Shown here: positions 31,302-54,565 of the stretch, piece after piece
Position numbering within the stretch: the first letter of the stretch is position 1
Layout of the letters: every line of letters starts with the position of its first letter
The notes under the pieces: model-generated
The model's database searches: none
Told to the model about the DNA's origin: nothing
The model's input: the letters and a program-made list of their open reading frames with translations, nothing else
NCBI GenBank assembly: GCA_963772995.1
Contig: CAVYZQ010000013.1
Location: forward strand, 3,294-67,293
DNA: 64,000 nucleotides
From: an uncultured Chloroflexia bacterium
Lineage (GTDB): Bacteria > Chloroflexota > Limnocylindria > Limnocylindrales > CSP1-4
Reading direction: 5' to 3'
Position numbers and translations under genes: made by a program

Positions 31302-32162
31302 TCAGGAGGGCAGGCGTCGCCTGCGGATCAGGTCCCTCAGCGCGAGCCCGACGAACCGGACATTCACGACGGTGTAGCGACGCGCCAGCCGGCGCGGCTC
31401 GTGGTACAGCCTGAAGAGCCACTCGAGTCCGAAGCGCTGCATCACGCGCGGGGAGCGGGGCAGGACACCGCTGACGATGTCGAAGGCCGCCCCGACGGCC
31501 ATGATCGCCGGTGCGTTGAGGGCGGCCCGATTGTCCGCGAGCCAGAGATCCTGCTTCGGTGTGCCCAGCCCGACCCAGATGAAGTCGGCATCCGCTGCGT
31601 TCAACCGGGCGACCATCGCCGCATTCTCCTCGGCCGTCAGCGGTCGGAAGGGTGGGGTCTCGCACCCAGCGACGATGAGGCCCGGATATTGCGTCGAGAG
31701 CTGCGCCGCCAGCCGTTGGGCGACACCATCACCACCCCCGTAGAAGAAGTGTCGGGCACCCTGCGCGCGCCCAAGGTTCGCGATGTCGGGCAGAACGTCG
31801 AGCCCACACACGCGTTCGATCCGGTAGCCTCGCGCCCGGCCGACCCAAACCAGAGGGACCCCGTCCGGGACGACCATCCCTCCGCCCTGCAAGGCATCGC
31901 GGAGGTCAGGCCTATCCTGCGCCTCGATGATCGTATGGGCCGTGCAGAAATGCACTCGCAGCCGAGCCCGGTCAGCCGGTGCCGCCAGGAAGGCTGAGAT
32001 CGCTTCCTGGTAGGTGACGGCCGCGATGGGGATGCCGGCGATGCCTACGACGCGAGAAGCGTCGTCAGGTGCCACGCGTTTCCACGGGGTACTCTCCGCG
32101 TCCACCTCGACCGGACGGGTCGCGAGCCTGCCCGACCCCACATCAGTCGACAAGGGGTCCAA
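31302..32162 (-). CDS. WecB/TagA/CpsF-family glycosyltransferase (GT26)
   Basis: Motifs include HFCTAHTI, GGGMVVPDGVPLVW and VAGCETPPF...FIWVGLGTPKQDLW. The true start is probably internal (VVGIAGIP...). Confidence 0.75.
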   Translation of the reverse strand: MDPLSTDVGSGRLATRPVEVDAESTPWKRVAPDDASRVVGIAGIPIAAVTYQEAISAFLAAPADRARLRVHFCTAHTIIEAQDRPDLRDALQGGGMVVPDGVPLVWVGRARGYRIERVCGLDVLPDIANLGRAQGARHFFYGGGDGVAQRLAAQLSTQYPGLIVAGCETPPFRPLTAEENAAMVARLNAADADFIWVGLGTPKQDLWLADNRAALNAPAIMAVGAAFDIVSGVLPRSPRVMQRFGLEWLFRLYHEPRRLARRYTVVNVRFVGLALRDLIRRRRLPS

Positions 32163-33775
32163 CCGCCGAACCGGTCATCGATCGCTCGCCGTGTCCGGCT
32201 GCAGTCGCCGGGTGGCTCCCCGCCGTCACGCCGGGAGCGAAGTAGCCGTAGGACGCCTCGGCGCGCGGGTTCGGCATCCGGTTCATGACCAATCCGAGCA
32301 TCCGCGTTCCAACGATCGACAGCGCGTCACGCGCCGCTCGGACCGCATCTCGTGGCGTGTGGTCGGCGTCGACGACGACGATCGACCCGTCGACGAAAGT
32401 CGATAGCACGGCCGGATCGGTGAACAGGTTGATCGGGGAGCAGTCGAAGATCACGATATCGGCGGCCGCAGCGAGACTTTCGACGATCGTTCGCATCCGC
32501 GCCGAGCCAAGGAGCTCCGCCGGATTCGGCGCCGGAGACCCGGCGGTGATGATACGGAGATCCGCCTGTTCGGTCGTCTGAGCCACGGTGTCGATGTCGA
32601 TATGGTCGAAGCGCATGAGGTCGGTCAGGCCGACCGTGCCAGACAACGAGAAGAAGCGATGCACGTTCGGCACGCGGAGATCGGCATCGACGAGGATCGT
32701 GCGTTTGCCAGCTTGTGCAAACACGATGGCGAGATTGCAGGCGACCGTCGTCTTGCCATCCTGAGGCTGGGCGCTCGTGACAATCATGGTCTTGGACGGC
32801 GCGGAGATCGCCGTGAACTCGATGTTCGTCCGAAGGACGCGGAAGGCCTCGCTTACCGGGGACCGCGGGTAGAGAAGGGCCGCTAGGCCATAGATCGGAT
32901 TGCGGTCCTTCTCGGTATGCATCCGGGGAATGAGGCCGAGGACCGCGAGACCCGTCAACCGTTCGGCTTCCTCGCGCGTCTTGAAGTGGTCCTCGAAATG
33001 ATCCAGCAACAATGCGAGGGCGGCAGCGATCAGGGCGCCCGCAGCGAGCGCGAGGAGCAGGTTGTTCAAGATCTGCGGCGACGAGGGCGATGTCGATGGG
33101 ACCGCCGAATTCGACGATGGCCAGGTGATTCGCGCCCGAGTTCGTCGCGTACGTCAGCATCGACGCGTATGTCGAACGAAGCGACAGCAGTCGCGCTTGC
33201 AGCTGGGTGAGTTGCTCTTGCTCCGTGGGGCTCGGACTCGCAAGGCTGGCGAGACGGTTCACCTCTGCCTGGGTGGACCTGATCTGGTCCTGGAGGGTGA
33301 CGAGGTCCTCGGCGACGAATTCTTCCACGCCCGATCCCTGACCGCCCTGCACGGTCGGCGAGTAGGCGATCAGCTCAGCCGCCATCTCGTTGGCGATGGC
33401 GGCTGCGACCTTCGCGTCGGCGTCGCGGGCCTGGATCGTGATCAGCGAGCTGTCGGCCGCGGTCGTCACGCTGATCCTGCGTTGGAGCGTGCCGGGATCC
33501 ACTGGGAGATGAAGCTTGTCGATCACCGCCTGCAGGATGAGTCGAGTCGTGGCGATCTGCGCGTACGTCGTGCTGAGCTGCTGAGAGGCAGCCATTTGAC
33601 TCAGGTCCGGGTTCACCGCCGTCAGGGACTGGCCGACGATGACTTTGGCCTGGCTGTCGTACGCCTTGGCGCTTGTCAGGCTCGAGGCGAGCGCACCCAC
33701 GACAGCAAGCGAGATGACCGCGATGATGAGCCTGTGTCGGGCGCGGAGGACGGCCAACAGGGTCCGAAGGTCCAA
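32143..33775 (-). pseudogene. Polysaccharide co-polymerase / tyrosine autokinase (Wzz domain plus BY-kinase P-loop ATPase), frameshift between domains at about 33075-33095
   Basis: The N-terminal Wzz domain is in ORF 32327..33775 (membrane anchor LIIAVISLAVVGALA, coiled-coil). The C-terminal domain is in ORF 32143..33069, with Walker A (SAQPQDGKTTVACNLA) and VDADLR. The kinase frame is open upstream across the junction. Confidence 0.75.
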
Positions 33776-33870
33776 GGTTCTCCTCGAGTGAAGACGAAGC
33801 GTCGCGAGTATGACAGCAAAAAAGCCAAATGCCGTCGACGGCGGTGCCCGGCCGCACCACAGACTTTCGC

Positions 33871-33906
33871 TGCCGGCGTGGCTGCCGGCGTGGCTGCCGG
33901 GACGGT
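33871..33906 (+). repeat. 12-bp direct repeat (CTGCCGGCGTGG, about 3 copies) in an 830-bp intergenic region
   Basis: Seen directly in the sequence. It lies in the long non-coding gap between the divergent BY-kinase and CWB2-protein genes. Confidence 0.6.
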
Positions 33907-35774
33907 ACCTAATCGCCCTGCTCCTTCGATCGTCGCCCTCGGATCGGCGGTCCGTTGCGCGACGAGGTGCTCATCAGCCTGACTATCCGACTAACGACAG
34001 GATGGAACGGCTGCAGGTAGGGTCGCTCTACCGACTATCGAGGACGTACGACCGGCCGGTACGACAAAGCCAACCCTGCAGTGATGCGGGTGAACGGAAG
34101 CCACGTGACTTCCTGCATCCCCAGGAAGCCAGACGGTTGCCGAATACCGACCACGTCGCGCCGTTGCGTGCTGTCTGCCCCGTCGCCGGACCACCGGTCG
34201 CCGCACCAGACCGTGCCAGGCTGTGTCGCGTGGTCTGAGGGACCATGCATTCCGATACGGGACCCGATCGCCGTTCGTCGAGCCCAGCCCTGGCGCTCCC
34301 CCGCCACTGAAGGCATCCGCCTCGAGTTCACGGACGCGGGAACGATCGCGAATTCAGGATCGTACGCCCTCAGCCGGCGGACGAGGCATCGGATCGGGCC
34401 TGGAAAAACGCCGGCGAGGCTATCGGCTACGCCCCGGTCGAGGAGGCGCTTGACGGCCCAGTGGAGAATAGTGGTGCGTCCGCGCACCACATATTTGCGC
34501 GTTCCCCCGACGCGACCGTCGATCGACTCGATACGCCCAAGCCTTGCCCGTGTGCCTGTCACGGGCGGTCATGTCACGTCGGGGTTGCCACCAGAAAGAG
34601 GTGCCTCGACATGCCCACGTTCCGGCGATCCAATGCCGTCACGAGGATCGTCCTCGTGGTCGCACTCGTTTTCGCGCTCTGCGCGTCGGCGTTCGCATCC
34701 ACCCCAGCTTCTGCTGCGGGCCTGGTCACTCGTCAAGCGGGTGCCGGTCGCACGGCGACTGCCGTGGCGATCAGCCGGGCGACATTCAGGCCCGGCGTCC
34801 CCGTCGTCTACGTGGCTGAACAGGCGGACCTCGCGTACTCGCTGCCCGGGGCGGCAGCAGCCGGCGCACTCGGTGGTCCCGTGCTGCTGACCGCCCGCAA
34901 CGCGCTGCCAGGGCAGGTCGCTCGGGAGCTCACCCGACTCCGGCCGGCGCGGATCGTCGTACTCGGCGGGACCCGCCACGTTTCCAACGCCGTTCTCGCG
35001 AGGCTCCGCTCGTATGCCCGAAGGTCATTCGCCAGGCTGGCGCGGACCGGTTTGCCACGGCCGCGGCCGTGAGCGCTGCTGCCTTCGCTCCCGGTGTGCC
35101 CGTCGCGTATGTCGCGCGATACGACGATTACCCGGCCATGTTCGCTGCTGCTGCCGCAGCCGGCGCGCTCGGCGGTCCCCTCCTCCTGACCGACCCGCGA
35201 AGGCTGACCCGCGCGACCGCGAACGAGCTCCGCCGGCTCCGTCCTGCGCGAATCGTCGTCGCCGGTGGAACCGGTGCCGTATCGAATGCCGTGCTGTACA
35301 CACTCCGGGGTGTATGCGGCGAGGGTGTCGCGCCAGGCGGGCGGCGATCGATACGCCACGGCGGCCGCGATCGCCCGGGGAACGATACCCGAACGGGGCC
35401 GATCTGGCATTCGTCGGCAGCGGCCTCAACATCGCCGACGGAGCGACCGGCGCCGCCGCAGCCGCGAAGCTGCATCGGCCGCTGTTCCTGACCGCCGTCA
35501 ATGACCGCGTCGGCTCCGACCGCGGCAGGACTCCTACGACAAGCGCCGCGAGCCCTCGTGATCCTCGGCAGCGAGACGGCCGTTTCGACCGCCGCCGCGA
35601 CGACGCTCGCTCGTGTGATCGCGTCGGCGGCCGAAGCCGAAGCCGACCGAGCCGACGCCCACGCCGACGCCGACCCGACGCCGACGCCGACGCCGCCCGA
35701 CGCCGACGCCGACCGCCCGACGCCGACGCCGACGCCGACGCTCCCGCGGCCACGCCGACTCCGACTCGCCGACG

Positions 35775-35894
35775 CCAACGGCGACTCCGACGCCGACGCC
35801 GACTCCTCGGCCAACAGCGACTCCGACTCCGACGCCGACGCCAACGGCGACTCCGACGCCGACGCCGACTCCTCGGCCAACAGCGACTCCGACT
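35775..35894 (+). repeat. 60-bp direct repeat x2 inside the PT-rich linker (low-complexity CCGACG microsatellite)
   Basis: CAACGGCGACTCCGACGCCGACGCCGACTCCTCGGCCAACAGCGACTCCGACTCCGACGCCGACGC is repeated at 35775-35834 and 35835-35894. Confidence 0.7.
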
Positions 35895-36005
35895 CCGACT
35901 CCGACGCCGACGCCACCGCCGGCCCCGCCAGGACAGGCCTTCACGACCATCCAGGCGGCAGTCGATGCCGCTCCATCTGGGGCGACCATCACCGTCCCGC
36001 CGGGG

Positions 36006-36345
36006 GTCTATCGCGAGAGCGTGACCATCCGAAAGCCCATCACCCTCAATGGCTATGGCGCGATCATCGATGGACGAGACACGGCCGGGAACCTCGTCCG
36101 GTCGACGTGGCTGTCTGTCGCCGCGAACGACGTGACCGTCCGCGGCTTCACCATGCGCTACGCGAATGGGACGTATGCGACCGGCTCGGTCGAGAACGCG
36201 GTCGGCGTCCAGCGGTTCCGGCTCGAGGACTGCGACCTCGGCTTCAGCTACGTCAACCTGAACCTGACGGGAGCCATCGACTCGACCATCAAGAACTGCG
36301 CCATCCACGACGCCAAGCATCTTGGCGTCCGGGTGTCGGCTCCCG
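36006..36345 (+). repeat. Copy A of a 340-bp, about 99% identical inverted repeat shared with the paralogous beta-helix gene (copy B at 41056-41395)
   Basis: Base-by-base comparison of 36006-36345 with the reverse complement of 41056-41395 shows at most 5 mismatches, whereas the flanking coding sequence of the two paralogs is clearly diverged. Confidence 0.85.
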
Positions 36346-37123
36346 GTGTCAACAACAATCGAGGCCAGCGCAATCAGGTTATCGGCAACCGCATCTATCG
36401 CAACAACATCGTGGGCGAGCCTGATAACAACGGCGACGCGGCCGGGATCAAGATCACCGCTCAGGACAACTTCGTGATCTCGGGCAACGAGGTCTACGAC
36501 AACGGGGCCAACGGTCTCTGGCAGGACGCCTGGTGCCGAAACTCCATGATCTCGAACAACCGCGTCCATGGCAACAATGGACCCGGCATCTTCGATGAGA
36601 CCTCGACCGGCACGAAGATCAGCGGCAACGTCTCTTGGCGGAACGGAGCCAATGAGCCGTGGGGCTGGGGCGCCGGCATCCTCGTCGCCGCATCGAAGGG
36701 CACCGAGGTCTACAACAACACCCTCGCCTGGAACAGGATCGGCATCAGTTACATCAGCCAGAACCGCGGTGACGACCCCGGCATGACCGGCAACTACAGT
36801 CACGACAACTTCGTGGCCGAGGCGCAGCAGGTGGCCGGTCAGGACCACTGGGGCTCGTTCTGGGCGCAGGACTGGAACGGCATCCTGTACCTGCCATCCA
36901 GCAACAACCACGGCCTCAACGACCGCTTCTACTACGCCAACCCGGACGGCTCGTTGGCCCCCGAGAACCAGTACCTCCGGTTCATCTGGGACGGCTACCG
37001 GAGCGCCACGACCTTCCGGACGACACCTGGCGGCCAGGGCGCATCCTATGCCACGCAGGCCGATGCCACGGCTATCCTGACGGCGGCCGGCGTGCCGTCG
37101 ACTCCATAGACAGCAGGCGATGC

Positions 37124-38190
37124 TTAACCGACGGCCCGGTACACCGCCAGCGTCTCTTCGGCGCAACGCCGCCAACTAAAGCGGCGCACCCGCTCGCGAC
37201 CTGCCGCGATGTGATCGTCACGCCGGCTCGGGTCGTTGGCCACGGCCAGCATCGCGTCGAGATAGGCAGCGGGCGTCTGGTCCGCGTAGATCGGGGCGTC
37301 ACCTCCCAGTTCGGGCAGGCTCGCCAGCGGCGAACAGATGACCGGACAGCCGAGCGCCATCGCCTCGACGAGCGGGAATCCGAAGCCCTCGTACCTGGTC
37401 GGGAAGACGAGGGCGAGGGCTCGCCGATAGAGATGGACGAGGACCTCGTCGTCCTGCCGGCCCGCATACCCCCATCCGGGCGGCGGCGAACCTTCGCCTT
37501 CCACGCCGAGCCAGCGCGCCCCCACGATCACGAGCGGCGGAAGGAGGATTCCCGGCCTGAGGCAAGCTCATAGACCTCGCGCAAGAGTCGAAGGTTCTTG
37601 ACCGGTTCGAGTGACCCTACGAACAGGTAGAAGTCGTGCGCCAGATCGAAGTCGGGAGGCCGCTCCGGCGGGATCAGGTCCGGGCTGAAATCGCACCCGT
37701 TGTGCACCACCTCGATGAGCGACGCCGGGAGGTCAAGGCAGCCGATCGCCTCATCGGCCGTGAACTGGCTGATACAGATGACGCGGTCGTAGCCTGACAA
37801 CGCCGCGAGCCGGCGCGGGCCACTCCTGCGTTGCCAGGCGCGATATCGATCGGGATACCGAAAGATGGCCATGTCGTGGGCGGTGGCGACCTTCCGTATT
37901 CCGTCCGGGATCCGCGCCATCGGGCCGGACGTCGCATGGAACACGTCGAGCTTCGCGGACCGCATGCGGCGCGGGGCGATCCACGGTGCCCAGACAGCCT
38001 CCCGGTAGACGGTCTTGAGGGACCGCTGAGGCTGCCGATAGTCGAGGTTGTCGACCTCCCAGGCCATTGGCACGACCTCGACGTCCGAGACGTCCAGCGC
38101 CTCCAGTCCTGCCAGCAAACCCCGGATGTATCGGGCGACGCCTGCCTGGGTCGTGCGCAGCCCGTTCGTGTCGACTCCGACGCGCATCAC
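37124..38190 (-). pseudogene. GT4-family glycosyltransferase, single frameshift at about 37545-37560
   Basis: The N-domain is ORF 37528..38190. The C-domain is ORF 37124..37531, with the EX7E-type motif FPTRYEGFGFPLVEAMALGCPVI. The junction ...LLREVYELA/..GILLPPLVIVGARW is consistent with a GT4 fold. Confidence 0.7.
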
Positions 38191-39389
38191 TCGACCCGTC
38201 GCCCGCGGCGATGGACCGAACGCGCCTTGGTGGCCCGTGCCCGGTCATAGATCTCCAGGTGCTTTTGGTAGCTTCGCCCGGGGGTGTAGCGCTCCTCGTA
38301 CTCGAGACGCGCGGCCCTGCCCAACGCGAGGATCTCGCCAGGATGCGATCGAGCCCAGTCCACCTTCGACGCAAGAAAATCTGGCGCATCGGCCGCGAAC
38401 ACGACACCACCGGAACTGCTTCCGACGATCTCGCCGAGCGATCCAAGATCGCTCGCCAGGACCGGCAAACCAGTAGCGAACGCCTCGGCGATCACCATCG
38501 GAAAGCCTTCGTACCAGATCGATGGGACCACCAGGAAGCTCGCCTCTTGCATCAGGCGCAGCACGTCGTCCTTCGGTCTGCGCCCGAGCCACTCGACGCC
38601 TGGGATACGGTCGGCTGCCGTAGCGACCTCGTCAGCGAGCGGTCCATCACCGACGATCTTGAGCGGGAAGGCACCATCGAGGCGCTCCCATGCCGAGAGC
38701 AACGTCGGCAAGCCCTTTTCGATCGCCAGGCGACCGGTGAACAGCGCGAAGCCCCCGTCGTGGGAGCCGACCCCCGGGTCCGGGTTGATGAAGTTCGGCT
38801 TGATGACGATCCTGTCGCCTCGAAGGCCGCCGGAGATGAGCTGCTGCCGTGCGAACTCGGATAGCGTGATGTAGACGTGGACGAGCCAATTCCAGGTCTG
38901 CAGCAGCCGGTGGGTCGACAGCATGCCCGCAACGACCAGGCTGGCGGATCGACTGTCCCGGTAGCACGCGTGCTTGACGGCCGGCCACGGGATCGGTCGT
39001 CCGACACAGTCGACACATGGTCGGCCGTCGCGGAAGAGCGTCGCGCCGGGGCAGATGAGGCGGTAGTTGTGGATCGTCTGGACGACGGGCACTCCCTCGG
39101 CGCGCGCGGCGTAGTAGCCCGCCGGCGAGATCAACGGGAACGTGTTGTGGAAGTGCACCACATCAGGGCGAAACGACCTGAGCATCGCACGCAAGTCGTC
39201 ATGGGCGCGCCGGCTCCACAGCGTGGTCGCGGCGAGGGTCCACGGCTTCATGTCGGCGACCCTGGCGTTGTCGTCCGTGTACAGCATGACGGAATGCCCG
39301 AAGGATTCCATCAACTCGCTTTCAGCCGCGAAGACCGAGTCCTCGCCGCCAGCCTGTTGGTATCGGTCATGGACGAAGACGATGCGCAT
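38187..39389 (-). CDS. GT4-family glycosyltransferase
   Basis: It is an intact 400-aa protein with SIWYEGFPMVIAEAFATGLPVLASD. Confidence 0.85.
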   Translation of the reverse strand: MRIVFVHDRYQQAGGEDSVFAAESELMESFGHSVMLYTDDNARVADMKPWTLAATTLWSRRAHDDLRAMLRSFRPDVVHFHNTFPLISPAGYYAARAEGVPVVQTIHNYRLICPGATLFRDGRPCVDCVGRPIPWPAVKHACYRDSRSASLVVAGMLSTHRLLQTWNWLVHVYITLSEFARQQLISGGLRGDRIVIKPNFINPDPGVGSHDGGFALFTGRLAIEKGLPTLLSAWERLDGAFPLKIVGDGPLADEVATAADRIPGVEWLGRRPKDDVLRLMQEASFLVVPSIWYEGFPMVIAEAFATGLPVLASDLGSLGEIVGSSSGGVVFAADAPDFLASKVDWARSHPGEILALGRAARLEYEERYTPGRSYQKHLEIYDRARATKARSVHRRGRRVE

Positions 39390-39514: not shown

Positions 39515-40312
39515 TCAGCCACGACGACGGAAGATGTAGATGTACCCTTCCGTACCTACGCCGGCGGCTTCATCCGGCTCCTGATGTCGCAGGTCGAGAG
39601 CCGCGGACTGGGCGACGGCGACGACATCTGCCGGATCGGTGTAGTACATGTCGAAGACGACGGACGTTCCGTGTCGCCACCGTCTGTATCTCGACCGCAC
39701 GCCCACCGGCAAGGCGTCGACGATGCGTCGGCGCGTCGTCGTTCGCGCAGGCCCACGCGATGGGAGCTGGAACGCCACGAAGCCGCCCGGAGCCGTCACC
39801 CTTCCGAATTCGGCGACATAGCTGGCGGCTAGCGACCAGGGCATGTGCTGCAGACAGATGTGCGAAAAAGCCAGGTCGAAGGTGGCATCCGGGAACTGAC
39901 GGAGGTCGACTGCATCGTTGACGAGCAGGCGGACGTTCGGGGCGCTCGCGACGACAATGCGGCCACGTTCGATCATCGGCGCCGAGATATCGACGCCGGT
40001 GACGGAAGCCGCCCTGCGTCCCCATGCCATGGACAGGCGCCCGACCCCGCAACCGAAATCGAGCACCGACGCGAAGGGACCCGTCTGCCCTGCGTCACGC
40101 AACAGTCCCTCGTACCTGGCAACGTCGGTCTCCCCTCGGGCGAGGAATTCTTCGAGGTCCCAGCGGCCTCGCCGGCGGTCCGCGTCGGTCAGGATCGCCC
40201 AGAGCGGGTCGTCCGTGCCAAGCGTCTGCCACGTCTGCCTGAGTTCGTCGAATTCCTGCGACGACACGACAGTTTGCCGCGGTTCGGCCGACGGCTGCCG
40301 CGAGCCGTTCAC
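39515..40312 (-). CDS. Class I SAM-dependent methyltransferase
   Basis: It has VLDFGCGVGRLS (motif I) and a Rossmann fold. Confidence 0.8.
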   Translation of the reverse strand: MNGSRQPSAEPRQTVVSSQEFDELRQTWQTLGTDDPLWAILTDADRRRGRWDLEEFLARGETDVARYEGLLRDAGQTGPFASVLDFGCGVGRLSMAWGRRAASVTGVDISAPMIERGRIVVASAPNVRLLVNDAVDLRQFPDATFDLAFSHICLQHMPWSLAASYVAEFGRVTAPGGFVAFQLPSRGPARTTTRRRIVDALPVGVRSRYRRWRHGTSVVFDMYYTDPADVVAVAQSAALDLRHQEPDEAAGVGTEGYIYIFRRRG

Positions 40313-41646
40313 GGAGCGATCGGCACGTCCGCCCCGAGGATCGCGTCGGTCTCCTGGCGCGTCAGATAGGTGCCGCCCTGCTCCCCTGGAGTGCCGTTGA
40401 AGTCGGACAATGTGGATCGCCCGCCGTCCCAGACGAAACGCCAGAAACGGTCCTCGGGAGCCGGGTAGAAGTATCGGTTGCCTGATCCGCGGTTGTTACT
40501 CGCGGTGGCATATAGCGGACCTGGCCAATCCTGGGCCCAGAACAGGCCGTAACGGTCGTTAACAGCGCTTGGCCGGTCTTCCACGATGATGTTGTCGTGG
40601 ACATAGGTGCCGGTCACGCCGGGACTGTCCGAGCGATCCTGGCTGATGACACTGATGCCGACCTTGTTCCAGGCCAACGTGTTGCCGTACACCTCGGTGT
40701 CCTTCGATGCGGCGACGAGGATGCCGGCGCCCCAGCCCCACGGCTCGTCGGCGCCGTTGCGCCAGATGACGTTGTTGTAGATCTTCGAGCCGGTGCTCGT
40801 CTCGTCATGGATGCCGGGGCCGCCGTTGTCGTGGATGCGGTTGTTCCGGTAGGTCGAGTTGCGGCACCAGGCATCCAGCCACAGACCCTTGCCCGAGTCG
40901 TAGACCTCGTTGCCATCAAGGACGAGGAAGTCCTGCCCGGTCGCCTTGAGGTTACCGGAATCCGCTCCGGGGTCAGGCTCACCAGTGCGGGCGTTGTGGA
41001 AGATGCGGTTGCCGATGAGCTGGTTGCGCTGGCCGCGGTTCTGCGTCGGAGTCGTGGACGACACCCGGACCCCGAGATGCTTGGCGTCATGGATGGCGCA
41101 GTTCTTGATGGTCGAGTCGATGGCTCCCGTCAGGTTCAGGTTGACGTAACTGAAGCCGAGGTCGCAGTCCTCGAGCCGGAACCGCTGGACGCCGACCGCG
41201 TTCTCGACCGAGCCGGTCGCATACGTCCCATTCGCGTAGCGCATGGTGAAGCCGCGGACGGTCACGTCGTTCGCGGCGACAGACAGCCACGTCGACCGGA
41301 CGAGGTTCCCGGCCGTGTCTCGTCCATCGATGATCGCGCCATAGCCATTGAGGGTGATGGGCTTTCGGATGGTCACGCTCTCGCGATAGATGCAGGCCGG
41401 CACCGTGAGTGTCCCGCCGGTCGGCGTGGCGTCGATGAGTGCCTGCAGGCTTGACGTGCAGGTCTGAGGTGGAGTCGGTATCGCTTCTATTGCTGTCGAT
41501 CGATCAGGGGCAATCACGTCGGAGACCAACGTGAGCGCAAAGGTAGTGGTGATGACAGGCACCAGAATCGCTGCCCGCCTCCACGTGACGACCGTTCGGA
41601 CGTGCCGCGAATCCACGAGCCGATGGTACTTTAAGCCGGCGGGCAA
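40309..41646 (-). CDS. Secreted/membrane-anchored right-handed beta-helix protein, intact paralog of the 36.0-37.1 kb domain
   Basis: It has an N-terminal hydrophobic anchor (AAILVPVITTTFALTLV), then TGGTLTVPACIYRESVTI and a beta-helix core. About 110 aa are identical to the other copy. Confidence 0.75.
   Translation of the reverse strand: MPAGLKYHRLVDSRHVRTVVTWRRAAILVPVITTTFALTLVSDVIAPDRSTAIEAIPTPPQTCTSSLQALIDATPTGGTLTVPACIYRESVTIRKPITLNGYGAIIDGRDTAGNLVRSTWLSVAANDVTVRGFTMRYANGTYATGSVENAVGVQRFRLEDCDLGFSYVNLNLTGAIDSTIKNCAIHDAKHLGVRVSSTTPTQNRGQRNQLIGNRIFHNARTGEPDPGADSGNLKATGQDFLVLDGNEVYDSGKGLWLDAWCRNSTYRNNRIHDNGGPGIHDETSTGSKIYNNVIWRNGADEPWGWGAGILVAASKDTEVYGNTLAWNKVGISVISQDRSDSPGVTGTYVHDNIIVEDRPSAVNDRYGLFWAQDWPGPLYATASNNRGSGNRYFYPAPEDRFWRFVWDGGRSTLSDFNGTPGEQGGTYLTRQETDAILGADVPIAP
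41056..41395 (-). repeat. Copy B of the 340-bp inverted repeat (see 36006-36345)
   Basis: The reverse complement matches 36006-36345 with only a few mismatches. Confidence 0.85.
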
Positions 41647-42702: not shown

Positions 42703-44252
42703 GGGTCGCCGAGCAGTCCGGCCCGCAGCCGGCCCGGGCCGGGCGATGGACTGGTCGGGCCACCAGTGGCCCGACGCGCAACACGGTCATCCGCGCCCTG
42801 CTGACCGGCGTGATTGCGATCGGTGCCGGGGCCGCGGTGGCCGTCTCGCCGGTCAGCCTGGCGGTCATTGCCGCAGGGATCGTCGCGATGTGGATCCTCG
42901 CGATCGGTCGCCAGAGCATCGCCGTCTTCCACGGTTCGCTGGTCGTGGTGCTGGTCGGCTACGCCTTCCTGAACAAGGGCTTCGCCTACTTCGGCGCGCC
43001 GCCGCTGTATGTCGGCGAGATGTGCCTCGTCCTCGCGGGGGTGGCGACCCTGTATTCCGTCCGGCAGGCTCGGTTCAGCCTGCCGCTCCTGTTCCTGGTG
43101 CTGTTCATGGCCTGGGGAGTCCTGAGGACCCTCCCATACGTCGGGACGTATGGCTTGTTCGCGATCCGCGACGGGGTGACCTGGGAATACGGACTCTTCG
43201 CGATCGCGGTCGCCCTGACCGTGCGCCGAGAGCACGTCGACCGGGTCGTCTCGCTCTACCGGCGGGGAGCACTGCTCCTCGTGTGGTGGATGCCCGTCGC
43301 GGCTATCCTGACGTTCCGGTTCGCCGCCAGCCTGCCGAAGTACCCGGGTTCTCCCGTTCCGGTCGTCTTCTACAAGGGCGGCGACGCGGGCGTGCAGCTT
43401 GCCGGGATCGCCGCGTTCGTCCTGCTCGGTCTGTATTCCGCACGAGATACCGCCCCGATCCGCCAGATCGTCCTGTGGTCCGGCTGGTTGGTCTCCGCAG
43501 GGCTGGCGGCCCTCAATCGATCCGCGATGCTCGCGATGGCGACGACCGCGGCCTGTTTCCTATTCGTGCTCTCCGTCCCTCGTGTGCTCTCGCTTGCATT
43601 CGTCGGCGCGGCCTTCGCGGTCATGCTGCTGACCGTCAACCCGGAGGTGGACCTGGGTTTGAGCAGGAACGTCTCGATCACGCAGCTGGTCACCAACCTC
43701 GGGAGCATCGCGGGCGGCGGCGACGACGCGCAGCTCGACGCATCGAAGGACTGGCGCCTGGCGTGGTGGACGAAGATCTATGGCTACACCGTCGACGGAC
43801 CCTACCGCTGGGTCGGCAAGGGTTTCGGCGTGAACCTCGCCACGGACGATGGGTTCCAGGTCGACGCAGCGCAATCGCTTCGGGCGCCCCATAGCACCCA
43901 TCTCGAGATCCTGGCCCGTGCAGGTGTGCCGGGGCTCGCCCTCTGGGCGTTGCTCCAGCTCGCATTCGCCGCTGCCATCCTCAGGGCTGCGGCCGTCGCG
44001 CGACGCATCAAAGAGCCAGCTTGGATCCCGTTGCTCGGGTGGGTCTTCGTATACTGGCTAGCCGCACTCGTCAACGGCTCGTTCGACGTGTACCTGGGCG
44101 GGCCGCAGGGTGGCATCTGGTTCTGGTCGATGATCGGCTTCGGTCTGGCGATGACCCGAATGGTCAACGAGCGGGCGGCAAGCGTCAGCTCCGAATGGTC
44201 GATTGCGACACCGCGATCAAGCTCCGCTGTCGGCGGCCCCGCAACTCCCTGA
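42699..44252 (+). CDS. O-antigen polymerase/ligase-like membrane protein (Wzy/WaaL family)
   Basis: It has at least 10 TM helices and a large periplasmic loop (...DWRLAWWTKIYGY...SLRAPHSTHLEILARAGVPG), which is typical of O-antigen ligase-domain proteins. Confidence 0.7.
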   Translation: MRVAEQSGPQPARAGRWTGRATSGPTRNTVIRALLTGVIAIGAGAAVAVSPVSLAVIAAGIVAMWILAIGRQSIAVFHGSLVVVLVGYAFLNKGFAYFGAPPLYVGEMCLVLAGVATLYSVRQARFSLPLLFLVLFMAWGVLRTLPYVGTYGLFAIRDGVTWEYGLFAIAVALTVRREHVDRVVSLYRRGALLLVWWMPVAAILTFRFAASLPKYPGSPVPVVFYKGGDAGVQLAGIAAFVLLGLYSARDTAPIRQIVLWSGWLVSAGLAALNRSAMLAMATTAACFLFVLSVPRVLSLAFVGAAFAVMLLTVNPEVDLGLSRNVSITQLVTNLGSIAGGGDDAQLDASKDWRLAWWTKIYGYTVDGPYRWVGKGFGVNLATDDGFQVDAAQSLRAPHSTHLEILARAGVPGLALWALLQLAFAAAILRAAAVARRIKEPAWIPLLGWVFVYWLAALVNGSFDVYLGGPQGGIWFWSMIGFGLAMTRMVNERAASVSSEWSIATPRSSSAVGGPATP

Positions 44253-44351: not shown

Positions 44352-45290
44352 ATGTCGGCTGGCTCTCTCGACCGGTTGCTCGTGACCTATCGCCGAACCA
44401 TGAAGCGGTCGGGGTTGCTCCATCGAGCCGCGTACGGCCTGAGCCGCCGGCTGCTCGATCCGCCCCATCGAGCAGCGCCGTGATTTCTACACGTCTGAAG
44501 AAGATCCTTTGTCTCTCAGGCTCGGCTTCTTGCTGGGTCAGTACGAGCCGGAAACCACGTCCCTGCTGAAGGGGCTCTTCCGCCCGGGATGTACCTTCAT
44601 CGACGTTGGTGCCCATGTGGGCTACTACGCCCGTCTGGCCGCAGAGCGCGTCGGGGCCAGCGGGCGCGTTATCGCAATCGAGCCAATCCGGCGACATTCT
44701 CGCTTCTGTCGCGGAACATGGCCTCGTTGACCAATTCCACCTTGATCGAAGCGGCCGCGTCCGATCAGGAGGGGATCGCCGTGCTCTACGACGCCCACCC
44801 CGAGACTGGCGGGAGCAGCCTCCGGATGGACGAACCGAAGCACGACTACTACGACCGACTCGTCGTAGAGGGCGAGCTTGCGCCGAGGGTGGCCGAGGGC
44901 TTGCCCGTAACCACCTACAGCGTGCGAACGGGCCTGCTCGACAGAATCCTGGCTGAGGCCGGGGTAGAACGCGTTGACGTCGTCAAGATGGATATCGAAG
45001 GCGCCGAGCTCTCCGCGTTGCGTGGGATGGAGCGGACCGTGTCTGCCTCGGGACCGATGCACCTGATCATCGAATTCAATCCGACGTCATTGGCGACGTT
45101 TGGTGTCACCCCCGAGAGCTTCTTCGGCGAGCTGTCTCGCCTCGGCTTCGGGTCGATCACATCGATCGACGACGAGCGCGGGAGTCGCCAGCTAGGTACG
45201 CCGGACGACCGTGGATCCGTTGCCGGTTGGGCGACTGCTCTCGCGTCTAATTTCGAACGCGTCAACCTCGTCTGCATCAAGCCGCACTGA
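44352..45290 (+). pseudogene. FkbM-family methyltransferase, 2 frame disruptions (about 44480 and about 44690)
   Basis: CTFIDVGAHVGYYARLAA...RVIAIEP (frame 3) is followed in frame 2 by NPATFSLLSRN...GGSSL...VDVVKMDIEGAELSAL. Confidence 0.6.
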
Positions 45291-45359: not shown

Positions 45360-46640
45360 TTACGCCTCGCGATCCTGCGGTGGCAGCACGCTTGGGATCC
45401 CGAAGTCCGCAAGCAGCCCTGCGAGATCGCGTCGACGTGTCTCCAGATCGAAGGGAGGGTGCGGTCTCGGGGCCGACTGGTGCGACCGCGCGATCTCGGC
45501 TGCCAGGAGCCGGATGGTCTGCTTCGGACTTCCGATCGGGACGGCGACCCCGCCAAGGGTCGGCGGACCGCCGCGATCAAGGCAGACGACGGGAAGACCC
45601 GATGCGACCGCTTCGACGACAGCCAAGGATCCCTCGTCATGGAAACTCGGGAAGACCAGGACGTCGGCTTCCTCACGCATGACCCGCATGACTTCCTCGC
45701 GTGTCTTCATACCGCGGAACTCGACGCGGTCGGCGATCCCGAGGCGGACGGCGCGGCTACGCAGCCGACCCTCCTCCGGCCCATCGCCCAGGATCACCAA
45801 ACGCCACGACGGCAGCTTGGCGATCGCCTCGAGTGCGAGCGGCACGCCCTTGAGCGGGATGAGGCGACCGGCGTAGAGGGCTGTCCGTCCACCCGGCGCT
45901 CGATCCGGACGGGGCGCGGGGACGTCTTCGAGGATGGTATTCGGGAACAGGACGTACTTGTGCCGGTGACGCCTTGGTAGCCAACGCATGGTCTCCGGGT
46001 TCTGGACAAGGATGAGGCTCGCTCGTCGCCAGGAAGTGTGCGCCAGGGGGTTGAGCCGACGCGCGAACCAGCGGACGGTCGTGCGCTGGAGCTCGGAGAA
46101 CAGACCTCGAGCCCCGAGGAAGCTCGCGAGGCGCCACGGGGGTTCGACGCCGCCTCCGACCGGCCCGAAGACGAAAGGCAAACCGAGGAGTGCAGCCGTC
46201 GACCCCAGCCAGGCGTTCGCCCACGTCAGGTGCCAGGCCACGTCGAACGAGTGCGTGCGATGGAGACGTCGGCTGACCCGCAGGGCCGCGAACTGCCACA
46301 CGAGGTACTTGGGCCGGTGAAACCGATCGGGGTGCCCCAGGATCGGGATCCGGAGCATCCAGCGGGGTGGCTCGACCTCGACGAAATGGATCCTGGCCCG
46401 CTCTGGAGCCTGTCCGAGGTGACGCTCCAAGTCCGCGCGATGGGTGTCCATCGGGAGCGTGATCACCCAGACCTCCGCGAAGCCGGCGAGCATCCGCGCC
46501 CAGGTCCAGCCGACCGCATGCTCGGAGCCGCCACCTGGTATCGAGCTGTAAGCGTAAGCGACTATCCGCGGGACTCGGGCACCGCCCGTGTCATCGGCTA
46601 GCGGGGTGCTACGTCCTCCGATCATCGCCCACGCGCCCAT
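45360..46640 (-). CDS. GT4-family glycosyltransferase
   Basis: It has GGSEHAVGWTWARML in the N-domain and VLVFPSFHDEGSLAVVEAVASGLPVVCLD in the C-domain. Confidence 0.75.
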   Translation of the reverse strand: MGAWAMIGGRSTPLADDTGGARVPRIVAYAYSSIPGGGSEHAVGWTWARMLAGFAEVWVITLPMDTHRADLERHLGQAPERARIHFVEVEPPRWMLRIPILGHPDRFHRPKYLVWQFAALRVSRRLHRTHSFDVAWHLTWANAWLGSTAALLGLPFVFGPVGGGVEPPWRLASFLGARGLFSELQRTTVRWFARRLNPLAHTSWRRASLILVQNPETMRWLPRRHRHKYVLFPNTILEDVPAPRPDRAPGGRTALYAGRLIPLKGVPLALEAIAKLPSWRLVILGDGPEEGRLRSRAVRLGIADRVEFRGMKTREEVMRVMREEADVLVFPSFHDEGSLAVVEAVASGLPVVCLDRGGPPTLGGVAVPIGSPKQTIRLLAAEIARSHQSAPRPHPPFDLETRRRDLAGLLADFGIPSVLPPQDREA

Positions 46641-47944
46641 CAGGGCAGCGCATCGGGCACGCCCTCGATAGTCACCGCCTTGCGCCGGCGATCACGGATC
46701 CCCAGCAGCGATTGACGCGACCACGCCGCGGTGCCGATCCACGCCGCCAGCGCCGCGCCCACTGCCGCTCCAAGTGCGGATCCAAGCCAGGCACCGGCGA
46801 CGATAAGGGCGAACGTCGCGATGGAGGTGACTAGATTGGCACGCAGGCTGCGACGTGAATTGGCGACGGCCCGAAGGACCGTCATCGGTCCGATCATCGC
46901 CAGCAGACCCGCGAACGTCAGCCCGAGCGGAACGAGCAGCGGGACGACCGCGTCCCAGGTCGATCCCAGGAGCCAGACGCCGAACGACTCGGGGATCAAG
47001 AGCAGGAAGACGCACCAGCCGACAGCGATGATGACGAGCCCGGCAGAGAGGGTGAGGGCCGCACGTTCGAGCTCCGTCAGCGATCGGTTCAACGCTCGCA
47101 CGGCTTCTGGGACGACCATCAGGCCGATGCCAGTCGACAGGATCTGGATCGGGCCGAACATGAGCAGAGCCGCACGCATGGCCCCGACTGCCGAAAGGTC
47201 GGCGACGGCGCCCATGCCGAACCACGCAGCCTGAGTGGCCCCGGTATTGACGACCACCTCGGTCAGGTAGCGTGGCCCGAGGTCGCGATGCTCTCGCCAC
47301 CACGACGCCGCCATGAGTGGGCGGGGAAGGACTCCGGACTGGATCACGCCGATGACCGCCGCGATGGTCGCCGACAAGCCCCACGCAAGGGTGAGCCAGA
47401 AGATCGACGTCTGGCCTGCGGCTGCGATGAGGCCGAGACCCGGGAACAACGTGCAGGCCCAGACGAGGTCGTTCTGGAAGGCTTTCGATCCCTTGCCAGC
47501 GGCGAAGAACGCCGACCGCCAACCATCCTGGAGAAGAAGGCCGGGCAACGTCAACCCGAGCGCCACGAAGGCCGGCCCCATCGTTCCGCCGAGGAGCAGA
47601 CCCAGCGGGATGAATCCAAGACCAACGGCCAGACCCGCGAAAAGGACTGTCCCGAGTGCCGCCGCACTCCCTCGCCGCCAGTCATCCGCCGCCGTCGCGC
47701 TGTATCTGATGGCCAGCGGTTGCATGGGAAACGCCCTGGTCATGTTGACGGCAAGGAGATACGCCGCGAACGCGAGGCCGAACGCCCCGAACTCGCTGAT
47801 GGGCACGGTCCGGGCGACGACTAACCCTAGAGCGAAGTTCGTCAGACTCGAGAAGACCTGATCGATCAGACCCCAGCCCGCCCGGCCCGCCACGGGTCTC
47901 GCGCGGCGCGCGGTCATCACAAGGTCGCTTCGGATTCCGGTCAT
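46640..47944 (-). CDS. Wzx-type oligosaccharide flippase (MOP superfamily polysaccharide biosynthesis protein)
   Basis: Starts at ATG 47944 (MTGIRSDLV...). It has about 12 TM helices. The upstream 127 codons of the ORF overlap the next gene and were rejected. Confidence 0.7.
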   Translation of the reverse strand: MTGIRSDLVMTARRARPVAGRAGWGLIDQVFSSLTNFALGLVVARTVPISEFGAFGLAFAAYLLAVNMTRAFPMQPLAIRYSATAADDWRRGSAAALGTVLFAGLAVGLGFIPLGLLLGGTMGPAFVALGLTLPGLLLQDGWRSAFFAAGKGSKAFQNDLVWACTLFPGLGLIAAAGQTSIFWLTLAWGLSATIAAVIGVIQSGVLPRPLMAASWWREHRDLGPRYLTEVVVNTGATQAAWFGMGAVADLSAVGAMRAALLMFGPIQILSTGIGLMVVPEAVRALNRSLTELERAALTLSAGLVIIAVGWCVFLLLIPESFGVWLLGSTWDAVVPLLVPLGLTFAGLLAMIGPMTVLRAVANSRRSLRANLVTSIATFALIVAGAWLGSALGAAVGAALAAWIGTAAWSRQSLLGIRDRRRKAVTIEGVPDALP

Positions 47945-51075: not shown

Positions 51076-51081
51076 CGGACC

Positions 51082-52330: not shown

Positions 52331-52395
52331 TGACGCGCGCAGCGGTACGCGTCGGTCACCGACTCACGGCCTCCGCGCTGCCGAGCGGACGCCGA

Positions 52396-52887: not shown

Positions 52888-53089
52888 ACGGCCGGTCTGC
52901 GGTTGGATCGCGGTCGATGGCGGGCGACGTTCAGAAACCGGTGACGGGCGTCAACGAACGAGGCGCGTTCGGGTCGGCCATGGTGCACACTGCGCGGATG
53001 ACTGACATGAGGCGCACCTGTGCCGCGTCGCAGATGACGGCCCCGGCACGGGCTCGTCCGGATGGCACGCCGGGCCGAGCGGCGAGCCG

Positions 53090-53897
53090 ATGAAGGTCGT
53101 GATCTTCTGCGGCGGCCTCGGACTCCGGCTGCGTGATTACTCGGACGCGATCCCCAAGCCGATGGTCCCGATCGGCCTGCGCCCGATCCTGTGGCACAAC
53201 ATGCGCTACTACGCCCACTACGGCCACAAGGAATTCGTCCTCTGCCTGGGCTACAAGGCAGATGTCATCAAGGATTACTTCCTGCGCTACAACGAGGCGC
53301 TCTCGAACGACTTCATCCTGTCCGGCGATGGGCAGCTCGAGCTCCTCAGCACGGACATCCAGGACTGGCGCATCGCATTCGTGAACACGGGCCTGAACGC
53401 CCTGATCGGCCAGCGGTTGCGGGCCGTCCAGAACCATATCGGCACCGACGAGATGTTCCTGGCCAACTACGGCGACAACCTGACGGACGCTCCGCTCGAC
53501 AAGCTCATCGACGACTTCCGAGGGCGCGACAAGGTCGCCGCCTTCCTGTCCGTTGCGCCGACGCAGCTCGTTCCACGTCGTGTCGCTGCGCGACGACGGG
53601 GTCGTGACCGCGATCGAGGGCGTGACGGCGTCGGGGCTGCGCATCAACGGCGGGTTCTTCATCTTCCGCCGGGAGATCTTCGACTACATCCGCCCTGGCG
53701 AGGAATTGGTCGACGAACCGTTCCAGCGGTTGATCGCCGAGGGCCAGCTCATCGCCTACCCGCACGAAGGCTTCTGGGCGCCGATGGACACGCTCAAGGA
53801 CATGCAGAATCTCGAGGCCTTGTACGACGCGGGTCGGCCGCCGTGGGCCGTGTGGCAGCAGGACGAGGAGGACGCCACGCCGTCCGAGGGAGGGTAG
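53090..53897 (+). pseudogene. rfbF: Glucose-1-phosphate cytidylyltransferase (CDP-glucose pyrophosphorylase), frameshift at about 53560
   Basis: MKVVIFCGGLGLRLRDYSDAIPKPMVPIGLRPILWHNMRYYAHYGHKEFVLCLGYK is nearly diagnostic for RfbF. The C-terminal 110 aa are in ORF 53553..53897 (FHVVSL.DDG...YPHEGFWAPMDTLKD). Confidence 0.8.
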
Positions 53898-53909
53898 GGA
53901 CCGCTTCGC

Positions 53910-54565
53910 GTGCGCCGTTTATCCTTCACCGATCAGCCGACGAGCCGCCTCGACATCCTGGTGATCGGCGCGCACCCCGACGATATCGAGATCGGCTGCG
54001 GTGGGACGATGCTTCGGCTGGTCGCGGACGACCGTGTCGCGAGCGTCCGCTGGGTCGTCTGTAGTGGCGAGGGCGGCAGAGCCGACGAAGCGAGGAACGG
54101 GGCACTGGCGATCCTCGACAGTGTGCCTGATCGCAGAGATCGTCATCCTCGGCGGCCGCGACGGATTCTTCCCGCTGAGCGGCGTCGATCTCAAGCAGTC
54201 GTTCGAGGGCCTGAAGACCGGCGCGGAACCGGACCTGATCCTGACCCACCGCCGCGACGATCGGCACCAGGACCACCGGTTCGTCTCCGACCTGACGTGG
54301 CAGACCTTCCGAAGCTCGATGATCCTCGAGTACGAGATCCCAAAGTACGACGGAGACCTCGGGAATCCGAATGTGTTCGTCGAGATACCCGAGTCGCTCG
54401 TTCGTCGGAAGATCGAGATCCTCGAGACGACATTCCCGTCACAGCTCGACCGCCATTGGTACGACGCCGAGACGTTCCGGTCGATCCTGCGGCATCCGGG
54501 GCATCGAATCGCGCACGGGATCCGGCTACGCCGAGGGTTTCGAGGCTCGCAAGGTCGTCCTCTGA
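53910..54565 (+). pseudogene. PIG-L/LmbE-family N-acetylglucosaminyl deacetylase, 2 frame disruptions (about 54125 and about 54495)
   Basis: It has LVIGAHPDDIEIGCGGTML (frame 3), then ...ILTHRRDDRHQDHR... (frame 1), then C-terminal YAEGFEARK (frame 2). Confidence 0.6.

Follow-up and report, generated by a model that had tools for sequence, protein, structure and literature searches.

Proteins of the Cwp family of Clostridioides difficile (Cwp6, Cwp8, Cwp19, Cwp84 and SlpA) carry three tandem, non-identical CWB2 repeats at one terminus together with a variable functional domain, and the proposed locus for synthesis of PSII (polysaccharide II), the ligand of CWB2, lies immediately downstream of the cwp/slpA cluster (PMC4973711). 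A second point of reference is WceF of Pantoea stewartii. This tailspike-like glycosidase has its gene within the Wzy-dependent cluster for stewartan, and loss of the enzyme lengthens the polymer (PMC7949094). We analyzed a 64,000-nucleotide stretch of DNA from an uncultured Chloroflexia bacterium of the Limnocylindria (contig CAVYZQ010000013.1, positions 3,294 to 67,293), hereafter called the window, in which a single gene at 34611-37109 combines an N-terminal CWB2 triplet with a C-terminal right-handed beta-helix domain. This gene lies in a glycan locus that spans about 21.4-55.1 kb of the window. The best joint explanation of the data, which we hold to be moderately probable, is that the region is a Wzx/Wzy-dependent heteropolysaccharide locus, for an exopolysaccharide (EPS), capsule or wall glycan, and that its beta-helix proteins are glycanases or lyases that trim the polymer.

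The window gene resembles those of the Cwp family in its three terminal repeats, in a predicted pseudo-trimer with a template modeling (TM) score of 0.88 to Cwp6 and Cwp8, and in the polysaccharide-synthesis genes that adjoin it. It differs from them in that its host is a member of the Chloroflexota with a high guanine-plus-cytosine (GC) content rather than one of the Firmicutes, in that one CWB2 gene lies inside a Wzy/BY-kinase (bacterial tyrosine kinase) locus rather than in a cluster of such genes, and in that its effector belongs to a beta-helix family otherwise tied to glycan loci and phages. In addition, its triplet lacks residues that are invariant elsewhere, its third repeat departs from the motif P[ILV][ILV][LV], and the linkage is not kept in relatives. 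WceF and its Erwinia homologs share with the window genes a right-handed beta-helix product that is secreted, a position between glycosyltransferase genes in a Wzy-dependent cluster with a Wzc/BY-kinase, the existence of phage tailspike counterparts, and a proposed role in trimming or chain-length control of their own polymer, which for the window genes would hold by analogy. In contrast to the WceF system, the window host belongs to another phylum and is probably a monoderm, there are two to three paralogs per locus with exchangeable N-terminal modules, and one window copy has a CWB2 wall anchor, whereas WceF has a twin-arginine translocation (Tat) signal and no anchor. No sequence homology to WceF/AmsF was detected in a profile search of all PDB sequences (E<=1), which matched no chain with the name WceF, and the likeness is one of architecture and apparent functional analogy, not of family membership. 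Phage tailspikes (Det7 gp208, the CBA120 TSPs and P22 TSP) likewise have a beta-helix fold, and a 60%-identical homolog of the window domain, P0005, is encoded in a viral structural module; the window genes differ in being chromosomal, in lying in a biosynthetic locus, and in having a signal peptide or membrane anchor but no virion-attachment domain. The nearest relatives of the window triplet are "cell wall-binding repeat-containing proteins" of the Actinomycetota and the Chloroflexota/Limnocylindria, in which three repeats are fused to diverse extracellular enzymes, but among the top 120 matches none pairs CWB2 with this beta-helix family. The window gene joins a Cwp-type anchored wall enzyme and a WceF-type EPS-cluster glycanase in a combination that is lineage-specific, divergent and possibly non-functional. 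To our knowledge, neither kind has been described in this phylum.

The GC content of the window is 64-73%, and mechanical lists of its open reading frames (ORFs) are dominated by spurious frames. Coding frames were chosen by third-position GC, the candidates were then tested against Pfam and NCBIfam, and frame disruptions were mapped on intact reference ORFs from relatives. The nearest syntenic loci are found in metagenome-assembled genomes (MAGs) of the Chloroflexota: locus L005 ("uncultured Chloroflexia bacterium MFD02242.bin.2.56") is fully syntenic, with 66-82% amino acid identity across the genes called GT4b, SAM-MT, GT2 and Wzy below, and locus L001 is syntenic with 77-80% DNA identity. 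The genes of the glycan locus, apart from those with a beta-helix, were as follows.

21465..22712, + strand: NDP-sugar C-methyltransferase (CMT1), intact, at the 5' end of the locus; Methyltransf_14/13/23, E=4.7e-63; 78% identity over 408 amino acids (aa) to the L001 ortholog.
23143..24225, + strand: priming polyprenyl-phosphate glycosylphosphotransferase; Bac_transf PF02397, 3e-67; TIGR03025, 340 bits (cutoff 296).
24226..25656, + strand: UDP-glucose/GDP-mannose dehydrogenase with 3 frame switches; UDPG_MGDP_dh_N and central domains in separate ORFs.
25659..26591, + strand: NAD-dependent sugar epimerase/dehydratase (Epim1); PF01370, 5.4e-52; 87% identity to the L001 ortholog.
31302..32162, - strand: WecG/TagA/CpsF-family glycosyltransferase; PF03808, 2.9e-55; TIGR00696, 145 bits.
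32143..33775, - strand: Wzz fused to BY-kinase (PCP-2b type), with 2 frame switches near 33012-33131; PF02706, 5.9e-10; P-loop families; TIGR01007, 173 bits, above cutoff.
37124..38190, - strand: GT4 glycosyltransferase (GT4a), its frame switching once at ~37552, so that the Glyco_transf_4 half is in one ORF and the Glycos_transf_1 half in another; undivided in L005, as an ORF of 389 aa.
38187..39389, - strand: GT4 glycosyltransferase (GT4b), intact; 66% identity to the L005 ortholog.
39515..40312, - strand: S-adenosylmethionine (SAM)-dependent methyltransferase (SAM-MT); Methyltransf_25/11, about 1e-20.
41737..42702, + strand: GT2 glycosyltransferase; PF00535, 3e-31.
42531..44252, + strand: Wzy-type polymerase (O-antigen ligase-like); Wzy_C PF04932, 46.9 bits (gathering threshold, GA, 31.7); 81% identity over 546 aa to the L005 ortholog.
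44589..45290, + strand: FkbM-family methyltransferase; PF05050, 9.4e-12; no reference in relatives.
45360..46640, - strand: GT4 glycosyltransferase (GT4c); Glycos_transf_1, 1e-22.
46640..47944, - strand: polytopic membrane protein, probable divergent Wzx/MOP flippase; 434 aa, identical to protein P0271.
49113-50150, - strand: epimerase/dehydratase (Epim2).
50362-51075, - strand: short-chain dehydrogenase/reductase (SDR).
51082-52359, - strand: second C-methyltransferase, with 3 frame switches.
52396-52887, - strand: RmlC/FdtA-like cupin.
53090..53897, + strand: sugar-phosphate nucleotidyltransferase with one frame switch at ~53555; partial match to PF00483; mapped on the L013 reference.
53940..54576, + strand: PIG-L family deacetylase whose frame switches once, at ~54165; PF02585 positions 1-45 (29.8 bits) and 70-127 (21.9 bits) in two frames; L020 reference.

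The sugar-nucleotide genes of the locus thus consist of the UDP-glucose dehydrogenase, two epimerase/dehydratases, the SDR, two C-methyltransferases, the RmlC/FdtA-like cupin and the nucleotidyltransferase, and unrelated metabolic genes and mobile-element debris lie on the flanks. The priming transferase covers positions 122-443 of the 445 in TIGR03025, its N-terminal third being absent with no frame switch, and the Wzz/BY-kinase is intact in L001 and L005, where it is 564-578 aa long. The true start of the Wzy gene is probably near 42699. The ORF called at 46640 is too long at its 5' end; its real product is the 434-aa protein encoded at 46640-47944, in which at least 10 hydrophobic segments were counted and which many related loci have conserved. 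This protein had no Pfam or NCBIfam match even at E<=1; JGI gives its homologs, at 42-51% identity, the name "O-antigen/teichoic acid export membrane protein", with PF01943 or PF13440 in 4 of the 120 listed, and these names suggest that it is a probable divergent Wzx-like flippase. An earlier note on this DNA had named the WecG/TagA transferase, the Wzz/BY-kinase, three GT4 and one GT2 glycosyltransferases, the Wzy, the SAM and FkbM methyltransferases, the PIG-L deacetylase and the priming transferase, and the Pfam and NCBIfam searches found every one of them where the note had placed it. The same note called the Wzx/Wzy pathway complete. The type of locus was correctly recognized, but the pathway is complete only after frame correction and its Wzx lacks direct support from a hidden Markov model (HMM).

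Two right-handed beta-helix genes lie inside the locus, and their features were the following.

34611..34718, + strand: start codon and Sec-type signal peptide of the CWB2/beta-helix gene (paralog 1), reading MPTFRRSNAVTRIVLVVALVFALCASAFASTPASAAG; maximum 15-aa hydropathy 2.96.
34719..35620, + strand: three tandem CWB2 repeats, divergent, readable only across 4 frame switches (~35010, ~35300, ~35380 and ~35500).
35621..35933, + strand: low-complexity PT/DA linker, (CCGACG)n, from a three-frame translation, with at least 1 further frame switch (35740-35830).
35934..37109, + strand: right-handed beta-helix (CASH/NosD-type), no frameshift; PF13229, 4e-14; NosD, 1.2e-10.
36040..36290, unstranded: gene-conversion tract of about 250 nucleotides (nt), 100% identical to the inverted paralog at about 41107-41357.
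40309..41646, - strand: beta-helix paralog 2 (bH2), intact, with an N-terminal transmembrane/signal anchor instead of CWB2; Beta_helix, 1e-15; NosD, 2e-16.

The product of the CWB2/beta-helix gene is a conceptual translation that follows the frames 0>2>0>1>2>0 between 34611 and about 35830 and so includes at least 5 frameshifts. As assembled, the gene does not encode an intact secreted protein: the signal peptide is present, and the coding sequence needs at least five frame corrections. When the frames were corrected, the N-terminus contained three CW_binding_2 (PF04122) stretches (E=2.1e-33, 115 bits, GA 24.9), and single CWB2 ORF fragments also exceeded the Pfam threshold alone, at 39.3 and 30.0 bits. 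Residues 3-284 of this region aligned to residues 132-418 of Cwp6, covering all three repeats (9.6e-17 for C. difficile Cwp6 and 9.4e-15 for Cwp8). An AlphaFold2 (AF2) model of the triplet, which is driven by the family alignment and does not probe the window-specific substitutions, had a predicted local distance difference test score (pLDDT) of 96.6 and a predicted TM score (pTM) of 0.93; a Foldseek search with it returned Cwp6 (TM 0.88, root mean square deviation 2.5 A), Cwp8 (0.88) and SlpA HMW (0.87) and no other significant match. The C-terminal 392 aa form the beta-helix domain (AF2 pLDDT 89.3, pTM 0.90), which is 77% identical to protein P0001. There is no in-frame start codon between 35619 and 36021, so a beta-helix protein with a signal peptide can be expressed from this gene only if the upstream frame is intact. 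The earlier note had described a secreted protein in which a PT linker joins three CWB2 repeats to a beta-helix, and had listed a second beta-helix paralog; both were recovered here, with the repeats scoring as CWB2 against the profile HMM.

Paralog 2 has the hydrophobic segment ILVPVITTTFALTLV, is identical to protein P0003 from the Met of P0003 onward, and has a counterpart in the same slot and orientation in L005. The two window copies lie 5 kb apart and match each other in inverted orientation, 35962-36875 against 41435-40525. Their identity in 60-nt blocks was 1.00 over 36051-36230 and 0.53-0.93 elsewhere, and a tract of perfect identity between flanks this divergent indicates recent gene conversion between the inverted paralogs. 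The beta-helix domains of the two tandem copies in L005 are likewise nearly identical, which suggests concerted evolution of the family within a locus.

We then compared the beta-helix domain across its relatives, using a family of 162 clusters (50% identity) at E<=1e-30 and 36 genome loci recovered with the beta-helix profile. The domain is nearly always C-terminal and stands behind variable N-terminal regions; accessory modules include Big_7 (P0011), SLH (P0155), three C-terminal CWB2 repeats (P0154) and fn3 (P0005), and in general the C-terminal beta-helix is conserved whereas the N-terminal targeting module can be exchanged. Hallmark genes, defined as Wzy, Wzz/BY-kinase, WecG or the priming transferase, were present within 10 kb of the beta-helix gene in 21 of the 36 loci, glycosyltransferases or a Wzx-like gene were near it in a further 7, and at least 2 beta-helix genes were present in 13. 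Nearly all of the loci belong to the Chloroflexota, including Nitrolancea, and two belong to Meiothermus. In these two (L032 and L037, from Meiothermus rufus DSM 22234 and a Meiothermus MAG), a family member at 31-33% identity adjoins Wzy, BY-kinase and GT4 genes, which extends the pairing of beta-helix and Wzy locus beyond the Chloroflexota to the Deinococcota. These results demonstrate that the beta-helix family, which the earlier note had held to be secondary, is a conserved partner of this type of locus.

Phages use beta-helix domains to bind and cleave host surface glycans, and the same family has a phage member. P0005 consists of fn3 followed by a beta-helix that is 60% identical to that of paralog 1 over the whole domain and keeps all family-invariant residues, and its gene lies between the portal and tape-measure genes, with a terminase gene nearby, in IMG/VR viral contigs. 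The contigs L002/L003/L004 and L041/L042 (IMG/VR UViG_3300009176_000030 and UViG_3300025934_000071) represent a soil phage or prophage with a P0005-type protein. The same phage encodes a galactosyltransferase-like protein in its head module and a GT4 after the tape-measure gene, and these phage glycosyltransferases may be glycan-modifying, seroconversion-type morons directed at the same host polymer.

The mechanism that we propose for the heteropolysaccharide locus begins with its assembly machinery, which the Wzz/BY-kinase would regulate. Outside the membrane, the secreted beta-helix proteins would bind the polymer made by the locus and trim it as polymer-specific glycanases or lyases, an activity suggested by analogy, because a homolog occurs in a phage (P0005) and the family is tightly linked to biosynthetic loci. 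The phage homologs would then probably be receptor depolymerases. The catalytic domain would be conserved while the targeting module is swapped, being a membrane anchor in paralog 2, Ig-like/Big_7 or SH3-like in the orthologs, fn3 in the phage, and SLH or C-terminal CWB2 in distant members. The CWB2 repeats of paralog 1, if functional, would keep the enzyme attached to a secondary cell-wall polymer without a covalent bond, in the manner of the Cwp proteins. We infer the wall anchoring, the substrate and the enzymatic activity alike from sequence.

Several results weigh against this reading, and they concern the activity of the beta-helix domain, the state of the CWB2 gene and the attachment of the polymer. 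With respect to activity, no CAZy-type family was matched by sequence, the best being GH120 at 6e-4; apart from GH120 XylC at that value, the only match among all PDB sequences in the profile search (E<=1) was AlgG at about 0.4. The fold matches included tailspikes, AlgE/AlgG, PL6/PL9 lyases, GH120, inulin fructotransferases, NosD and PfbA, and they are generic (TM 0.3-0.55, 10-18% identity), so that no enzymatic activity can be read from them or from the sequence. AlgE6, AlgE4 and AlgG ranked with the best structural matches (E between about 5e-7 and 1e-5, TM about 0.45-0.5), weak AlgE/AlgG profile matches were also obtained, and the UDP-glucose dehydrogenase of the locus would supply a uronic acid precursor. 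AlgG is moreover encoded in the biosynthetic operon of its own polymer. These points would fit beta-helix proteins that modify the polymer, for example as uronic acid C5-epimerases like AlgG/AlgE, which we nevertheless consider decidedly unlikely: the DPH[DE] motif of those epimerases is in neither paralog (there is no DPH), the fold matches to tailspikes, lyases and hydrolases are equally good, and a 60%-identical homolog in a phage virion module is typical of depolymerases and hard to square with an epimerase. The presence of the pneumococcal protein PfbA among the fold matches, and the fact that CWB2 is best known from S-layer proteins, could instead point to a non-enzymatic role as a structural surface-layer component or a PfbA-like adhesin. 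This appears very improbable given the strong conservation of polar and acidic columns across 125 diverse family members, the tight linkage to biosynthetic loci and the existence of phage homologs, and no sign of lattice-forming domains was seen. The conserved Asp and Glu residues of the domain include D199 and E223 (domain numbering).

With respect to the CWB2 gene, the window triplet is the most divergent of the 46 compared. An HMM was built from 45 homologous triplets, and the window triplet, as the 46th, scored 319 bits against 389-447 for the homologs, the lowest score of all. It differs at 24 of the 91 columns that are conserved in at least 85% of the 45. The Asp of the FPDAL motif, invariant in the homologs, is replaced in repeat 1 (LAYSL) and repeat 2 (YPAMF). 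The P[ILV][ILV][LV] motif is essential for anchoring in each CWB2 repeat (Willing 2015, PMC4973711); repeats 1 (PVLL) and 2 (PLLL) conform to it, but repeat 3 reads PLFL, with Phe in place of a Leu that is 100% conserved in the homologs. All 45 compared triplets, in contrast, keep the FPDAL and PxLL positions lost in the window copy. Compensating frameshifts hidden behind the lost FPDAL motifs were considered and rejected: no alternative frame restores the motifs, so these are real substitutions, which indel errors do not cause. The frame switches are also concentrated here, with at least 5 of the approximately 17 in the locus falling in the about 430 codons of the CWB2 part, several-fold denser than elsewhere in it (the overall rate for the locus is roughly 1.5 per 1000 codons). 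It is thus possible that the CWB2 anchor is non-functional, or even that the gene as a whole is dead.

Because of these substitutions and the denser frame switches in the CWB2 part, we keep a true pseudogene with a decaying anchor as a serious rival. Under this explanation the N-terminal half of the gene is decaying, the beta-helix has been refreshed by conversion from paralog 2, and nothing is anchored; the perfectly identical tract shared with paralog 2 and the missing start codon in 35619-36021 both fit it. We regard it as doubtful, since frame switches are general to this class of assembly. Relatives in "contig_N" long-read-style loci showed 30 frame switches in 49.7k aligned aa, whereas short-read or isolate loci showed 0 in 24.7k aa. 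Conserved genes of the window are hit as well: the UDP-glucose dehydrogenase is switched 3 times, at residues ~190, ~297 and ~347 of the intact L005 ORF, and its segments are 78-91% identical. The L001 dehydrogenase (4516-5968), from an independent long-read assembly, breaks at ~301-305, near the window's ~297 and in a C5/G4-rich stretch, and this shared break looks like a hotspot of systematic basecalling or consensus error. The triplet, furthermore, still scores 115 bits in Pfam and models as a Cwp6-like pseudo-trimer.

The remaining frame disruptions of the locus were distributed over the Wzz/BY-kinase (2), GT4a (1), the second C-methyltransferase (3), the nucleotidyltransferase (1), PIG-L (1) and the DUF11 gene described below (1), and 13 genes were intact relative to their references (CMT1, Epim1, WecG, GT4b, SAM-MT, bH2, GT2, Wzy, GT4c, Wzx, Epim2, SDR and the RmlC-like gene). 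Break points outside the CWB2 gene include those at about 24720, 25080, 25230, 33012-33131, 37552, 51470-51600, 52170, 53555 and 54165. All of the approximately 17 disruptions were of the indel type, with no true nonsense codons among them, which also argues against a pseudogene. A stop at 51520 in the second C-methyltransferase was considered as a nonsense mutation and rejected, because two compensating indels flank the Arg-rich stretch that contains it and put that stretch out of frame. Two of the five break sites in the CWB2 gene are at G4 runs and one is in the (CCGACG)n repeat. Homopolymers account for the frameshifts in part: those two sites and the dehydrogenase site at ~297 are at G4/C5 runs, and the others are not. 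The MFD MAGs derive from Nanopore data alone, and the authors who published them warn of Nanopore-associated errors where the coverage of a MAG is low (PMC12313526). Taken together, the contrast of 30 switches with none, the conservation and shared break of the dehydrogenase, the restriction to indels and the Nanopore-only origin of the MFD MAGs indicate that the frameshifts are probably Nanopore assembly errors. It counts against this account that we only infer the window's own origin, which is most likely a Nanopore-only assembly.

With respect to attachment of the polymer, no LCP (LytR_cpsA_psr) ligase was found among the ORFs scanned across the window, although the rest of the genome may encode one, and the locus itself thus gives no sign that its polymer is attached to the wall. 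This bears on the proposal of the earlier note that the locus is a self-contained surface system, in which the neighboring genes build the secondary wall polymer recognized by the CWB2 triplet. Polymer synthesis, anchor and anchored protein would then act as one unit, comparable to C. difficile cwp and its AP/PSII (anionic polymer/PSII) locus. The CWB2 gene is indeed embedded between the Wzz/BY-kinase gene and glycosyltransferases, the UDP-glucose dehydrogenase means that the polymer may be anionic like PSII, and the unusual divergence of the triplet could reflect re-targeting to another ligand. The C. difficile arrangement is a precedent for such adjacency (PMC4973711), and for that reason a CWB2 gene next to a polymer-synthesis locus is not a new concept. 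The comparative results gave this proposal no backing, and we consider it unlikely. In the search for linkage in relatives, the beta-helix gene was kept near the hallmark genes, but a CWB2 gene was near it in none of the 40 related loci checked, including the fully syntenic L005 and L001. The orthologous slot of L001 has Ig-like/Big_7-like modules with PT linkers, and that of L005 is filled by a tandem pair of genes whose N-termini are Ig-like/Big_7 and SH3-like. P0154 is the only other fusion of CWB2 with this beta-helix among 163 family members, and its gene lies amid genes for a major facilitator superfamily (MFS) transporter, a regulator and a cytochrome, outside any glycan locus. Among the top matches from 5.8 billion proteins searched, none covers both the CWB2 and the beta-helix halves, and a scan of JGI metagenomes for close relatives of the triplet gave 503 pattern matches, none of which was confirmed. 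The pairing of BY-kinase and Wzz is, in addition, typical of EPS or capsule synthesis.

The earlier note had also argued from rarity, taking CWB2 to be unusual in a high-GC organism. This does not hold, as the CWB2 half has hundreds of matches (45-52% identity) among the proteins of Microbacterium, Leucobacter, Leifsonia, Cellulosimicrobium, Xylanimonas, Georgenia and Chloroflexota/Limnocylindria MAGs, so that CWB2 is common in high-GC Actinomycetota and Chloroflexota and its presence beside a glycan locus gains nothing from rarity. These high-GC CWB2 proteins are fused to subtilisins and other proteases, GH18 chitinases, amidases, CAP domains and others, which argues for a general wall ligand and not for the product of a hypervariable Wzy locus. 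A variant in which the divergent triplet has shifted its target to the polymer that the locus makes, probably uronic acid containing and methylated, and tethers the trimming glycanase to its own substrate, seems quite improbable. If true, it would provide the first CWB2-ligand pair outside the Firmicutes and a handle on the little-known envelope of Limnocylindria-type Chloroflexota.

Other features of the locus and its flanks include an inserted surface-protein gene and the debris of mobile elements.

26682..30150, + strand: DUF11-repeat surface protein with an apiosidase-like/GH5-like domain; DUF11 x3 and x2; PF13204, 2.3e-34.
30119-31120: transposase fragment after the DUF11 gene; weak ISNCY/IS5 match.

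The DUF11 gene contains 360-bp tandem repeats of about 99% identity at 27001-28784. The block is missing between the epimerase and WecG genes of the syntenic L001, which points to its insertion into the glycan locus. Its two ORFs overlap by 8 nt within the repeat array, marking the frame break counted above. At the 5' edge of the locus, mobile-element debris at 19194-21342 consists of weak IS1182/DUF772 transposase fragments, and a group II intron catalytic domain lies at 20473-20571 (Rfam RF00029, 47 bits, gathering score 40), beside which no reverse-transcriptase ORF was found. No tRNA genes that would mark the boundary of a genomic island were found in the window. Between the divergent Wzz/BY-kinase and CWB2 genes, the alignment to L001 continues past the Wzz coding region for about 500 nt (33776-34277), at about 71% identity; this intergenic stretch (33.8-34.3 kb) gave no Rfam match and no convincing sigma-70 promoter, and it could have a conserved regulatory role or contain a small gene that is not annotated. 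Immediately beyond the locus, 56065-58841 on the - strand encodes a large secreted multidomain protein with Big_7, Laminin_G_3 and a glucose/sorbosone dehydrogenase-like beta-propeller, and its coding frame flips every 150-300 nt in a plot of third-position GC, showing that it is heavily frameshifted.

For the reading of such genomes, these results carry the caution that indel clusters in long-read-only MAGs can mimic a pseudogene or mask a real one. CWB2 anchoring is widespread in high-GC monoderm lineages, whereas the literature treats CWB2 mainly as a trait of the Firmicutes. The beta-helix family is a recurrent and duplicated component of Wzy-type loci across soil Chloroflexota and even in Meiothermus, and a domain 60% identical to it is found in a phage. 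It offers a candidate triangle of enzyme, substrate and phage receptor for a phylum with a barely characterized envelope, and its proteins could be mined as glycan-specific depolymerases.

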